In this document: piece by piece, positions 3,526 through 14,086 of the stretch
How the letters are laid out: every line of letters begins with the position of its first letter
How positions within the stretch are numbered: the first letter of the stretch is position 1
From: an uncultured Eubacteriales bacterium
Lineage (GTDB): Bacteria; Bacillota; Clostridia; TANB77; RGIG9151
Direction: 5' to 3'
NCBI GenBank assembly: GCA_964475435.1
Contig: CAYYWT010000015.1
Coordinates: forward strand, 1-20,497
DNA: 20,497 nucleotides
The notes under the pieces: model-generated
What the model was told of the DNA's origin: nothing
The model's database searches: none
Seen by the model: the letters and a program-made list of their open reading frames with translations, nothing else
Translations under genes and position numbers: made by a program

Positions 3526-3969
3526 CTATTTCAAAATCTTAAACTTCCCTACAACAGGTAAATCCTTCATTTCTCCCTTTGCCGCACTTACAATTCCGAG
3601 AATTTCATATACAAACGCTACAAGGCTAAGAATAGAAGAAAGTAACTCTCCAATCATTCCCATAAACGGTATTGTACTTATAACACCACAAATCAGTCCT
3701 AAAATAACAGTCGCTAAAAATATAACCAACCCTTGGTTAGCGTGATATCTAGCAAATTTAGATTTAGTCGACATAAGTATCGGAACAATAAATAAAATTC
3801 CTATATACGAAATTATTCCTAACGCTCTATTTTTTTCCGTATCAGCTTTGTCAGCTCCCAAGACTTCACCGGTAAAAACCCCCGAATTTACGTCAATAGC
3901 AGCACCACAAGATTGACAAAATTTAGCATTTTCTTCTAATTCTGCTCCACATTTTTCACAAAATTTCAT
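3526..3969 (-). CDS. Zinc-ribbon domain membrane protein (DUF4870-like C-terminus)
   Basis: 147 aa with ATG at 3969 and SD AAGGAGG. The N-terminus has CxxC-x12-CxxC (MKFCEKCGAELEENAKFCQSCGA). It is followed by three hydrophobic segments and a YHANQGL motif. Confidence 0.8.
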   Translation of the reverse strand: MKFCEKCGAELEENAKFCQSCGAAIDVNSGVFTGEVLGADKADTEKNRALGIISYIGILFIVPILMSTKSKFARYHANQGLVIFLATVILGLICGVISTIPFMGMIGELLSSILSLVAFVYEILGIVSAAKGEMKDLPVVGKFKILK

Positions 3970-10614: not shown

Positions 10615-11946
10615 TCATACATATTCATACTTTTTCCTATTAGCAATAAAGCAAATCACGCTGACAATAATCGCACATGCTTCAGCAATAACAGTCGCAA
10701 GCCATATTCCATTTATTCCCCATAATCTTGGTAAAATTAAAATTGCCAAAACTTGGAACACTAAAGTTCTTAAAAAAGATATAAGAGCAGATATAAAACC
10801 GTCATTTAATGCCGTAAAGAAAGAAGAAGCAAATATGTTAAACCAACTTATGATATAAGATAATGAATATAATCTTAGAGCATTAACAGTCAATTCCAGC
10901 AATTCCTTATCATACCCTACAAATATACTTGCAAGTGGTTTTGCAAAAATTTCAGCAAGAGCAGTCATAACAATTGCCGTAATTCCGAGCAATTTCACAC
11001 TTTTATTAAGTAATCCTTTCAATTCTTCTTTATTTTTAGCACCATAATGATAACTAATTACCGGCGCACTTCCGATAGAATATCCTACATAAGTACCAAC
11101 AAATAAAAATCCAACATACATTATTACCCCATAAGCGGACACGCCATTAGCTCCAACCAAGTCCATAAGTTGCTTATTAAACAAAATACTAACTAAAGAT
11201 AACGAAAGATTAGTAACCATCTCAGACGAACCATTAATACAAGTTTTTACTATCGGAGACAACTCGAAATTAGTCTTTCCAAGTCTTAACATAGTATTAT
11301 TTTTTCTAACAAAAAACACCATCGGAATACAAGCGCCAACAACCTGACTTGCAACTGTAGCCCAAGCTGCTCCGGCAACTCCCCATTTAAATAAATATAT
11401 GAATACAAAGTCTAAAATCATATTTGTAAGTCCGGCAATTATTGATATTCCAAGTCCAAAATTAGGTTTTTCAGCGGTAACCATAAATGACTGAAAGCTA
11501 TTTTGCAATGTATAAGCAACTAATCCAAACAAAAGAATTCTCCCATAAATCAAACAATCAGGCATCATCGTCGCATCTGCTCCAAGTAACCTTGCAATCG
11601 GTTCTAAAAAAAACAAACCAACCACAGTAAGAATTACGCCCAATATTATTTCTAAATAAACCAGCATTGAAAAATATCTATTTGCCCGATTTCTATCCCC
11701 TTCTCCAAGAGTTTTTGATATAATCGCACTACCACCTGTTCCTACCATAAAGCCTACTGTTCCCAAAATCATAATCGCAGGCATTATCAAATTAATAGCC
11801 GCAAACGCATTACTACCAACTATATTAGAAACAAATAAACCGTCTACTACACCGTAAATAGAAGTAAAAATCATCATTATTATCGTAGGCAACGTAAATT
11901 TAATCAATTTTTTATATGTAAAATGTTCTGACAAATTAATTTCCAT
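10615..11946 (-). CDS. MATE-family efflux transporter
   Basis: A 12-TM-like hydrophobic profile with the typical MATE N-terminus after the re-called start: MEINLSEHFTYKKLIKFTLPTIIMMIFTSIYGVVDGLFVS. The ORF-track start at 11985 is TTG. The ATG at 11946 has GGAGG (11959-11955) 8 nt upstream. It overlaps the stop of the upstream gene by 11 nt. Confidence 0.9.
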   Translation of the reverse strand: MEINLSEHFTYKKLIKFTLPTIIMMIFTSIYGVVDGLFVSNIVGSNAFAAINLIMPAIMILGTVGFMVGTGGSAIISKTLGEGDRNRANRYFSMLVYLEIILGVILTVVGLFFLEPIARLLGADATMMPDCLIYGRILLFGLVAYTLQNSFQSFMVTAEKPNFGLGISIIAGLTNMILDFVFIYLFKWGVAGAAWATVASQVVGACIPMVFFVRKNNTMLRLGKTNFELSPIVKTCINGSSEMVTNLSLSLVSILFNKQLMDLVGANGVSAYGVIMYVGFLFVGTYVGYSIGSAPVISYHYGAKNKEELKGLLNKSVKLLGITAIVMTALAEIFAKPLASIFVGYDKELLELTVNALRLYSLSYIISWFNIFASSFFTALNDGFISALISFLRTLVFQVLAILILPRLWGINGIWLATVIAEACAIIVSVICFIANRKKYEYV

Positions 11947-12562
11947 TATTTTTTCCTCCAAACCATTCTTTCGCATAATCCGCAAGCGAATTTATTATTT
12001 TCTTAATCTCAACATTTGACGTGTTTATACACAAACTATAATTTCTCTTATCATCCCACTCCATATTAGAAATCAAGTTATTAAAAGATTTTCTGCTTTT
12101 ATCAATTGCTTTAATTTTTTGCTCCAATTCTTTATCCGTTAAATTTTCATCTTCTTTCGCTTTTTCTCTACAACGTCTTATTTTAGAATCAATATCTGCA
12201 TAAACAAAAATATTCATCGGATTATATTCTCTTAAAATAAAATTAGCTCCTCTTCCAACTATAATCGCATTTCCCTTTTGAGCAATTTCTTTAATAATAC
12301 TTGCTTGTTTTACTAAAATTTCTGTTTGCTGACTTTGAGTAGAAGAATACACAGCAAACGATTTCGCAAATTGAAACGGATACGGATATACTCCCTTTTC
12401 TGAAATATTCTCTATATACTCTTCAGACATACCGGTCTCTTTAGCTAGTAATGTAATTATTTCAGAATCATAATAAGAATACCCTAGCTTATCTGCCAAA
12501 CGTTTACCTATTTCCCTTCCTCCACTGCCAAATTCTCTACTAATTGTAATAATTTTGTTCAT
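11936..12562 (-). CDS. Cytidylate-kinase-like family protein (P-loop, PF13189-like)
   Basis: The N-terminus, ITISREFGSGGREIGKRLADKLGYSYYDSEII, is characteristic of this family. Two ATGs are available (12568 and 12562). The SD AAAGGGGA is correctly spaced (7 nt) only for 12562. Confidence 0.85.
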   Translation of the reverse strand: MNKIITISREFGSGGREIGKRLADKLGYSYYDSEIITLLAKETGMSEEYIENISEKGVYPYPFQFAKSFAVYSSTQSQQTEILVKQASIIKEIAQKGNAIIVGRGANFILREYNPMNIFVYADIDSKIRRCREKAKEDENLTDKELEQKIKAIDKSRKSFNNLISNMEWDDKRNYSLCINTSNVEIKKIINSLADYAKEWFGGKNNGN

Positions 12563-12581
12563 ATTCATTCCCCTTTCACAT

Positions 12582-12619
12582 AAAAAAGCCCGATTATTTA
12601 ATTAAAAATAACCGAGCTC
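12582..12619 (-). terminator. Intrinsic terminator (attenuator) inside the 5' leader of the cytidylate-kinase-like/MATE operon
   Basis: Minus RNA forms GAGCUCGGUUAUUU / AAAUAAUCGGGCUU (about 14 bp with G-U pairs) with loop UUAAUU, followed by U6 (A-run 12582-12587). It ends only about 20 nt before the start codon. Confidence 0.6.
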
Positions 12620-12702
12620 ACTCGACATCTTATCGACTCATGTTTCAAAAAATGAAACGATGCTACGGCATCGAGTCCTCCGATGATTATACCTTTCCTA
12701 AC
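12620..12702 (-). promoter_or_regulatory. Structured 5' leader (candidate riboswitch or attenuator sensor domain), ligand unknown
   Basis: A three-way junction can be drawn. P1 is GACUC/GAGUC (12677-12673 with 12639-12635). It encloses the hairpins GAUGC-CGUA-GCAUC (12672-12659) and GUUUC-AUUUUUU-GAAAC (12658-12642). An alternative pairing, ACUCGA/UCGAGU, and a CGAG-UGAG-CUCG hairpin compete with the terminator 5' arm. Confidence 0.4.
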
Positions 12703-12708
12703 TTTTTT

Positions 12709-12737
12709 AGTTTAGCAAACAAGTAAAAACTTGTCAA
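12709..12737 (-). promoter_or_regulatory. Candidate promoter for the leader and cytidylate-kinase-like/MATE operon
   Basis: Minus strand: TTGACA (12737-12732), a 17-nt spacer, then TAAACT (12714-12709). Confidence 0.5.
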
Positions 12738-12766
12738 TAACAGCTTTTGCCAATTCTTTACTACAT

Positions 12767-12938
12767 GTTACAGGTCAGACTTAATTACTTATCAAAAGAT
12801 AATATCATTAGTTTTCCCGCTCAAACACGTCCTCGGTGAAAAATTCGATTAAATTCTTATTTTGAATTTTTCACCTGTGGAACTCGCTCTTTAAACTAAT
12901 GATATTATCTTTTTAAAACAAGTAGACTGAATAGTAAC
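12767..12938. mobile_element. 172-bp MITE-like non-autonomous element with imperfect terminal inverted repeats and an 8-bp target-site duplication
   Basis: The termini are gttacaggtcag... and ...ctgaatagtaac. A perfect direct repeat TACTACAT sits immediately outside both ends (12759-12766 and 12939-12946). The interior holds a perfect 21-bp inverted repeat (12794-12814 / 12893-12913) enclosing a perfect 12-bp one (12835-12846 / 12864-12875). A shorter related copy lies at 3406-3461. The element has no coding capacity. Confidence 0.65.
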
Positions 12939-12940
12939 TA

Positions 12941-14086
12941 CTACATAGCTTTCCTATATAAATTAATGAAATCATCTTTAGTAACCTCTCTTGGATTACC
13001 TGGCTTACACGGATCCTCCAACGCCTTATCTGCTAACATTCCTAAATCATCTTCTTTTACTCCGTAAGCTGAAATAGTCATATCAATTCCAACAGATTTA
13101 GATAATTCTTTAATCATATCTACAAATTTAGAAATAACTTCTTCTTTAGAATAGTCTTTTGCATTAACTCCTAAGGCAATTAAAATTTCTCTAAAACGTT
13201 CATAGCAAACTTCTCCGTTAAATTCCATAACTACCGGAAGTAACAATGCATTAGCAATTCCGTGAGGTGTATCATAAACAGCCCCTAATTGATGAGCCAT
13301 AGAATGAACTATTCCAAGTCCAACATTAGAAAATCCCATACCGGCAATATATTGAGCAAGTCCCATATTATTGATCGCTTCTTTATCTTTATCAACAACC
13401 GCTTTAGTTAAATTTTCAAAAATCATTTGAATAGCTTTCATATGAAACATATCAGACATTTCATTATGACCTAAAGTAATATATCCTTCAACAGCATGAG
13501 TCAAAGCATCCATTCCGGTTGCAGCCGCTAAAGATTTAGGCATAGACTCCATTAATTCAGAATCTACAATGGCTAAAATCGGAATACTGTTCGCATCTAC
13601 ACATACCATTTTAACTTGACGTTCTTCGTCCGTAATAACATAATTAATGGTTACCTCAGCAGCAGTTCCTGCAGTAGTAGGTAAAGCAATTAAAGGTAAA
13701 CCTCTATTTTTAGTATTAGATGCACCGTTTAATGAACGAACATCAGCTCTATCCGGATTAGTCATAACAATAGAAATTCCCTTAGCCGTATCAATACTTG
13801 AACCGCCTCCAACAGCAACTATAACGTCCGCATTAGCATTTTTACAAGCCATAACTCCATCAGTTACATTTTTTATAGTAGGATTCGGCTTGATATCACA
13901 AAATAGTGAATAATCAATTCCCGCATTTTTTAATGTGTCTTCAACTTTAGCTGTAACCCCAGCATCTACCAAAACCTTATCACTTACTAAGAGAACCTTC
14001 TTAAACCCCCTGTTTTTTATTTCATTACTTAAATTCTCTCTGGAATTTGCACCAAAATACGATGTTTCGTTTAACACAAATTTCAT
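12941..14086 (-). CDS. fucO: Iron-containing alcohol dehydrogenase, lactaldehyde reductase (1,2-propanediol oxidoreductase) type
   Basis: 381 aa with SD AGGAGGG. As I recall E. coli FucO, the two are collinear and closely similar: ...LNETSYFG..., GGGSSIDTAKGI, PLIALPTTAGTAAEVTINYVITDEE, GMDALTHAVEGYIT, GFSNVGLGIVHSMAHQLGAVYDTPHGIANA, PGNPRE. Confidence 0.88.
   Translation of the reverse strand: MKFVLNETSYFGANSRENLSNEIKNRGFKKVLLVSDKVLVDAGVTAKVEDTLKNAGIDYSLFCDIKPNPTIKNVTDGVMACKNANADVIVAVGGGSSIDTAKGISIVMTNPDRADVRSLNGASNTKNRGLPLIALPTTAGTAAEVTINYVITDEERQVKMVCVDANSIPILAIVDSELMESMPKSLAAATGMDALTHAVEGYITLGHNEMSDMFHMKAIQMIFENLTKAVVDKDKEAINNMGLAQYIAGMGFSNVGLGIVHSMAHQLGAVYDTPHGIANALLLPVVMEFNGEVCYERFREILIALGVNAKDYSKEEVISKFVDMIKELSKSVGIDMTISAYGVKEDDLGMLADKALEDPCKPGNPREVTKDDFINLYRKAM

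Follow-up and report, generated by a model that had tools for sequence, protein, structure and literature searches.

The RNA leader in front of a cytidylate-kinase-like gene and a MATE efflux gene is, with a probability of about 0.7, a riboswitch of the transcriptional "ON" type that belongs to no catalogued class. It is encoded on the minus strand of the window, that is, the whole stretch of 20,497 nucleotides that was analysed. The leader consists of a folded aptamer-like body, a small hairpin (P4) and an intrinsic terminator that uses part of the same bases as P4. The same structure is conserved and covaries in genomes of Clostridia and Bacilli, where it precedes several kinds of export and modification genes. 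The observation made in a sequence-only reading of this DNA was thus confirmed, and its riboswitch interpretation, in which the RNA would sense a ligand, was supported.

Leader structure and locus

The genes in the part of the window around the leader share the minus-strand orientation, and the features of the locus are summarized in Table 1. Transcription is predicted to start at about position 12702, and the promoter is also kept in a genome of the same genus (G007). The ATG of the PF13189 (cytidylate-kinase-like) gene was picked from an alignment with its orthologues, and the MATE gene begins inside the kinase-like gene, sharing its last 11 nt. The sequence-only reading had described a TTGACA-17-TAAACT promoter upstream of the gene, a three-way junction made of P1 and two hairpins, and a 14-bp terminator hairpin with U6 about 20 nt before the start codon. 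The promoter and every named helix were found where that reading had placed them, and the distance between U6 and the ATG at 12562 was 19 nt. Its description of the junction had, however, missed an outer helix (P0) and the loop-loop covariation described below. A 26-nt inverted repeat (12789-12814 / 12893-12918, 92% complementary, within 12759-12946), inside which there is a perfect 12-bp hairpin (12835-12846 / 12864-12875), was also observed between the stop codon of the Fe-alcohol dehydrogenase gene and the leader promoter.

Table 1 Features of the leader and the neighbouring genes in the window.
Feature	Position	Strand	Remarks
Fe-alcohol dehydrogenase gene	end at 12941	minus	
Whole leader region, promoter to gene start	12737..12563	minus	promoter, three-way junction, terminator, then gene
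Promoter, sigma-70-type, TTGACA-17-TAAACT	12709..12737; TTGACA 12737-12732, TAAACT 12714-12709	minus	10/12 matches, TG before -10
Aptamer body	12626..12685	minus	P0, internal loop, P1, P2, P3
P0 outer helix CAUC/GAUG	12685-12682 / 12629-12626	minus	
Internal loop GGAG / GAUAA	12681-12678 / 12634-12630	minus	
P1 GACUC/GAGUC	12677-12673 / 12639-12635	minus	
P2 hairpin GAUGC-CGUA-GCAUC	12672-12659; strands 12672-12668 / 12663-12659	minus	
P2 tetraloop CGUA	12664..12667	minus	proposed partner of the P4 loop
P3 hairpin GUUUC-AUUUUUU-GAAAC	12658-12642; strands 12658-12654 / 12646-12642	minus	
P4 anti-terminator hairpin U-CGAG-UGAG-CUCG	12613..12625; CGAG-UGAG-CUCG 12624-12613, loop 12620-12617	minus	
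Intrinsic terminator	12582..12619; stem 12619-12586, loop 12605-12600, U6 12587-12582	minus	14-bp stem
Shine-Dalgarno sequence (SD)	12577-12571	minus	
PF13189 cytidylate-kinase-like gene	ATG 12562, stop 11938-11936 (with SD 11936..12577)	minus	Pfam E = 7e-48
MATE efflux gene	10615..11946, ATG 11946	minus	Pfam MatE, E = 1e-44

The predicted folding of the leader was better than that of shuffled sequences (z = -3.6), and none of 200 shuffles equalled it. P4 overlaps the 5' arm of the terminator, whose stem begins with seven bases of the P4 loop and 3' strand. When the transcript was cut just before the 3' arm of the terminator, the minimum free energy structure consisted exactly of P0, the junction, and the P4 hairpin. 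The computed stability was -3.9 kcal/mol for P4 versus -16.3 kcal/mol for the terminator, which suggests that termination is the default outcome. Since only an additional stabilisation of the P2-P4 state could then give read-through, the element would be an ON switch.

The sequence-only reading had proposed that both a CGAG-UGAG-CUCG hairpin and an ACUCGA segment of the junction pair alternatively with the 5' arm of the terminator. The hairpin, which corresponds to P4, held up as a conserved and covarying element. The pairing of ACUCGA was rejected because this strand covaries as part of P1 and reads ACAG.., ACUU.. or ACCG.. elsewhere.

Conservation and spread of the RNA family

The closest orthologous operon, with 75% protein identity, is that of G024, a genome from a different family of this order; it carries the same leader with long identical blocks, except that the third hairpin has UUUUG/CAAAA in place of GUUUC/GAAAC. 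A BLAST search of 401 genomes of the order gave 11 copies in 11 genomes, and a covariance model constructed from these 11 copies identified 96 full-length copies in genomes of Clostridia and Bacilli. A pattern scan (GAGGAC-N(24-54)-AGAUGUYGAGUGNGCUC, one genome per species) matched at least 115 stretches, labelled Oscillospiraceae, Lachnospiraceae, Christensenellaceae, Ruminococcus, Erysipelotrichaceae, Acholeplasmatales, and other Bacilli and Clostridia; at 78 of the 80 fetched loci, the covariance model gave a full-length match. The two loci without a model match (L068 and L122), labelled Gemmatimonas and Solirubrobacteraceae, are probably chance hits, a few of which are expected by a rough estimate. 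Full model matches were also observed in two metagenome-assembled genomes labelled as an actinobacterium and Bacteroidales (L074 and L081), and these copies may be due to binning contamination or transfer.

Using the model alone without the pattern, 13 copies were found in 10 of 141 genomes of the Sellimonas caecigallum family, with one or two copies per genome; each of six genomes searched whole contained one. When 150 genomes sampled evenly from the GTDB phylum of the window were searched under strict filters, the model found no copy, and a plasmid search gave one partial match, on an unannotated Subdoligranulum replicon. The distribution of the motif, which occurs in more than a hundred species of gut Firmicutes, is patchy yet spans Clostridia and Bacilli. 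Cultured carriers include Thomasclavelia saccharogumia DSM 17460, Pseudoflavonifractor capillosus An827, and Sellimonas caecigallum JCM 35759, as well as Massiliimalia massiliensis, Pseudoruminococcus massiliensis, and Huintestinicola butyrica, which makes the riboswitch reading directly testable.

In the family, the 5' strand reads U-CAUC-GGAG-GAC and continues into a stem ending in a tetraloop C-(G/C)-(C/U)-A (C-S-Y-A), and the 3' strand reads GUC-G(N1-6)A-AGAUG-U-CGAG-UGNG-CUCGG and runs into the terminator. The internal loop of the family is GGAG / G..AA; a kink-turn, a loop E, and a tetraloop-receptor were each considered for it and rejected by inspection because of a misfit in strand order or sequence. 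Among 84 distinct copies, the distance from the G of GAC to the start of the P2 loop was 10 nt in 74, and the remaining 10 had 11 nt. The 3' side of the P1+P2 stem accepts 0-26 extra nucleotides, which form the third hairpin P3 in about half of the copies, including that in the window. Because these 3'-side inserts vary, the three-way junction is regarded as an optional addition to a P1+P2 stack whose length is fixed.

Most loci were obtained by the exact-pattern scan, and the samples free of the pattern requirement were smaller; hence, GAGGAC and AGAUGUYGAGUGNGCUC are invariant in part because the pattern demanded them. Of the positions that the pattern left free, UCAUCG, the A preceding AGAUG, and the GG following GCUC were also 95-100% conserved, and P0 (CAUC/GAUG) was invariant except for three U-G pairs. 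The most conserved bases, GGAG and AAGAUGU, are located at single-stranded or junction positions. In 85 distinct sequences, 93% of the cells in the modelled pairs were standard pairs, versus 79% in column shuffles and 23-51% with slid partners; over all covariation analyses, the controls ranged over 79-81% and 21-51%, respectively. The alignments A2 and A4 were fitted to the structure of the model itself. Changes on both sides were observed at all five P2 pairs (three to six pair types each), at two distal P1 pairs, and at seven of the nine modelled terminator pairs.

P4 was conserved in all copies, usually as CGAG/CUCG, and its variants in the pattern-free sample were CGGG/CCCG (8 copies), CAGG/CCUG (1), and G.U (1). 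A pairing of the internal-loop GGAG with CUC of P4 was excluded because GGAG was unchanged where P4 was CGGG/CCCG. The 5' arm of the terminator (GNGCUCGGUUAU) was much more conserved than the 3' arm with which it pairs, and opposite one G of the 5' arm, C, U, G, and A all occurred. This suggests that the 5' arm is constrained by something besides the terminator. In A2 and A4, the terminator loops varied freely (AAUUAA, AAAA, CUUA, GAAA, or long inserts). In 83 of 84 copies, the 24 nt around the 3' end of the match contained an 8-nt window with at least five U residues.

Promoters matching at least 10 of 12 positions were found within 110 nt upstream of 45 of 81 copies versus 4% of control windows, indicating that the motif lies at the 5' end of its own transcript. 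Upstream of the leader of G024 (L019), a tRNA-like sequence ends about 45 nt before P0, where the window has its TTGACA promoter. No good promoter was found upstream of this leader (best 7/12); hence, it may be co-transcribed with the tRNA-like sequence.

Next to the stems, the two tetraloops also varied together. The P2 and P4 loops were CGCA and UGCG in 41 copies, CGUA and UGAG in 25, CCCA or CCUA and UGGG in 4 (from two or more lineages whose stems differ), CUUA and UGAG in 1, and CGUA and UACG in 1; in 11 copies, CGUA, CGGA, or CGAA was combined with UGCG. Position 2 of the P2 loop was C only where N of UGNG was G, and N was A only where position 3 of the P2 loop was U. In an antiparallel reading, position 2 and N would form G-C, C-G, U-A, or G.A, and position 3 and the base before N would form C-G, U.G, or U-A; the commonest AT-rich loop pair, CGUA and UGAG, corresponds to G.A and U.G, which are not Watson-Crick pairs. 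This covariation points to a contact between the P2 and P4 loops. Since two closed tetraloops cannot form four pairs, a kiss of two bases between the central dinucleotides is the likely geometry, and a contact of only about two bases would be weak on its own. The fixed length of P1+P2 equals the combined length of P0 plus P4, and this would fit a fold in which a bend at the internal loop places the two stacks next to each other.

Genes behind the leader

The first downstream ORFs (78 distinct, classified by Pfam) included MatE (37), ABC exporters with membrane plus ATPase domains (12), PF13189 (10), GNAT (about 6), and MFS (2), and the flanking genes differed between loci. NCBIfam gave only generic multidrug names to these pumps (FepA-like MATE, Bcr/CflA MFS, and SmdAB/Tet(46)-like ABC). 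That one RNA precedes export and modification genes of several unrelated kinds is what is classically seen with riboswitches that sense a toxic compound. If the leader is a riboswitch, its ligand would be a compound that many gut Clostridia and Bacilli export by three unrelated pump families and modify by two enzyme families. The identity of the ligand would then assign substrates to the MATE, ABC, and MFS pumps and would give a function to the uncharacterised PF13189 kinase-like proteins.

For the GNAT proteins, no NCBIfam model matched, the comparison with structures of spermidine acetyltransferase (SpeG) was non-significant (E 0.4-0.6), and a profile built from six of them found nothing meaningful. 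The PF13189 protein of the window has the P-loop GSGGREIGKR (residues 8-18, window 12510-12540), in which Arg occupies the Ser/Thr position of Walker A. Its only structure matches were 3hdt and 3fdi, structural-genomics entries without an assigned function.

Within the order, the same MATE orthologue followed the leader in all 11 copies, and the kinase-like gene lay between the leader and the MATE gene in G000 and G024. In G001 (L021:1604-1743) and G158 (L024), the 135-139-nt spacer between the leader and the MATE gene is what is left of the PF13189 gene's 3' end, as indicated by tblastx against positions 12600-11850 of the window (E = 8e-16 and 9e-13). The kinase-like gene therefore once lay between the leader and the MATE gene in these lineages and was lost by deletion. 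Kinase-like orthologues with 63-64% identity were also observed directly behind another gene in G035 and G018 (L003:2130-2216 and L004). Their spacer contains only a terminator-like hairpin (GAGUUCGGUUAU...GAGCUC and a T-run) resembling the leader terminator, and the junction is absent from it (model score 17.8 bits). In other genomes of the order, the PF13189 domain was found in open frames of about 660-690 aa, with MATE-like N-termini in the five that were read; the MATE-kinase fusion genes of five genomes of the order carry no copy of the leader motif.

Proposed mechanism, known systems, and alternatives

In the proposed mechanism, RNA polymerase would start about 15-20 nt before P0, and the nascent RNA would fold into P0, the internal loop, and P1 stacked coaxially on P2, a stack that has a constant length and carries the C-S-Y-A tetraloop at its end. 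Right after P0, the 4-5-bp hairpin P4 with its UGNG loop would form, and the central bases of both tetraloops would touch each other and keep P4 closed. When the signal is absent, the terminator would displace the weak P4 and transcription would stop at U6, whereas binding of the signal would make the folded state persist and let the polymerase read through. Read-through at this locus would result in expression of the kinase-like gene and, by translational coupling, of the MATE gene. The signal would be a small molecule or an ion that is exported by the downstream pumps and modified by the associated enzymes. A more specific form of this reading, for which we see about even odds, is a class that senses a toxic small cation or xenobiotic and induces an exporter (MATE, ABC, or MFS) or an enzyme (GNAT or PF13189) through a guanidine-II-like tetraloop contact in a single domain holding the anti-terminator. 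As generic features of riboswitches, PMC7736828 describes nucleotides that are highly conserved between distantly related taxa, stems that covary, a tertiary contact or pseudoknot, placement before non-homologous genes of several kinds, and an expression platform in the form of a terminator. These sequence and structure features were all found in the leader family, the contact being the one proposed between the P2 and P4 loops.

The folded RNA might instead be the site of a protein or another trans-acting antiterminator, which would stabilise P4 and the loop contact. A protein site and a ligand pocket are indistinguishable by sequence analysis, and the highly conserved GGAG and AAGAUGU, being single-stranded or at the junction, could be read by a protein. 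However, no conserved regulator gene was located beside the motif, the five effector families downstream are unrelated to each other, and their flanks differ; one or two copies per genome, spread over Clostridia and Bacilli, are also the typical pattern of a riboswitch. We consider such a protein site unlikely. Among the protein-dependent systems, the ANTAR-type target has two tandem hairpins with hexanucleotide loops, the second of which overlaps the terminator. This candidate was rejected, as both conserved loops of the leader are tetraloops.

The leader RNA matches no catalogued family, in agreement with the sequence-only reading, which had assigned it to no known riboswitch class. Rfam 15 gave no match at the gathering threshold in the whole window, only chance matches far below the threshold in 12450-13000 with E up to 10, and nothing at the leader coordinates in eight diverse copies with E up to 0.5. 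The literature that we searched on MATE-linked riboswitch candidates, kissing loops, and the core strings contained no description of the motif as far as we found; many subscription papers and unpublished motif collections were outside this scope. Likewise, MATE, efflux, and multidrug were not mentioned in the main text of the motif catalogues PMC5737381, PMC8632094, and PMC11109978.

The guanidine-IV riboswitch (mepA motif) turns transcription on by means of a contact between two loops, which is in competition with an intrinsic terminator, and guanidine-IV and Gd4v RNAs precede MATE (mepA-like) and GNAT genes, Gd4v being enriched in gut bacteria (bioRxiv 10.1101/2020.10.21.349134; PMC9788692). 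The leader resembles them in its proposed ON logic, its proposed loop-loop contact against the terminator, and its MATE and GNAT genes, and could accordingly be thought of as a divergent member that senses guanidine or a relative. In guanidine-IV, however, the conserved bases are in the P1 loop and the terminator loop, and the contact involves the terminator's own loop (bioRxiv 10.1101/2020.10.21.349134), whereas the leader has a variable terminator loop, and its contact partner would be a separate 4-5-bp hairpin at the 5' shoulder of the terminator. The loops are of the ACCG/GGU type in guanidine-IV/Gd4v and CGYA/UGNG in the leader, which has in addition an outer helix and a conserved GGAG internal loop. 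In the part of the Gd4v supplementary alignment used for comparison, the sequences look different, the core strings of the motif (GAUGUCGAG and GUCGAGUG) were absent, and GGAGGAC occurred in flanks only. Judged by the published descriptions and this part of the alignment, the leader is set apart from guanidine-IV/Gd4v, and its membership there is very improbable.

Guanidine-II (mini-ykkC) shares the idea of kissing tetraloops, whose ACG trimers make a contact like that suggested for the P2 and P4 loops (PMC7736828). Its loops are ACGR, whereas those of the leader are CGCA, CGUA, or CCYA with UGCG, UGAG, or UGGG. Moreover, the hairpins of guanidine-II are connected by a free linker and control translation, whereas the leader forms one domain (P0-P1-P2 + P4) and controls a terminator. 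For the HMP-PP riboswitch (thiS motif), PMC6478431 describes a terminator-embedded aptamer with conserved aptamer nucleotides within the terminator stem, so that, similarly to what is proposed for the leader, the ligand-bound fold and the terminator are mutually exclusive through common nucleotides. The leader differs from it in sequence, structure, and gene context, and only the 5' shoulder of its terminator is common to both folds. Taken together, the leader is most likely a new riboswitch class, in which a device of known kind has an architecture of its own.

A non-sensing element, in which a leaky terminator and a stable 5' structure set a low basal level or protect the mRNA, would be in line with the two related genomes where a terminator-like hairpin alone, and no junction, precedes the orthologous gene. 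A passive terminator, however, needs no invariant 5' arm facing a freely varying 3' arm, no stack of fixed length, and no covarying loops, and we give this explanation very little credence.

Leader-peptide attenuators are known for efflux genes of Bacillus subtilis, as in bmrB-bmrCD, where such an attenuator acts at the leader terminator of multidrug efflux genes and is induced by toxic compounds. In the window, GGAGG is located 5 nt before AUG-CCG-UAG (12671-12663), and a ribosome stalled on this Met-Pro-stop mini-ORF could open the junction and shift the balance between terminator and anti-terminator; however, a start codon was found 4-10 nt after GGAGG in only 25 of 94 copies (AUG in 3, a two-codon frame in 10), and the bases that would serve as codons form the covarying stem of P2 and its loop, which makes this explanation barely credible. 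In contrast to the attenuators of the bmrB-bmrCD type, which depend on a leader peptide, the RNA structure is conserved here and the leader ORF is not. Hence, where the sequence-only reading had left a choice between a riboswitch and an attenuator platform, the attenuator was not supported, and the riboswitch of no known class was supported by the blank Rfam scans, the conservation with covariation in orthologous and non-orthologous loci, P4, and the downstream genes.

As a riboswitch, the leader would enrich the riboswitch repertoire and sensor engineering with a compact aptamer, whose minimal form has about 60 nt and which is locked in an unusual way by its two loops. In some genomes, two copies of the leader were observed 0.5-3.5 kb apart before different genes (L071:2193-2308 and 2655-2766; L097:140-231 and 3660-3750; G648:C17:21834-21925 and 24425-24537). 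In the L071 pair, one copy precedes an 80-aa ORF and the other an ABC exporter.
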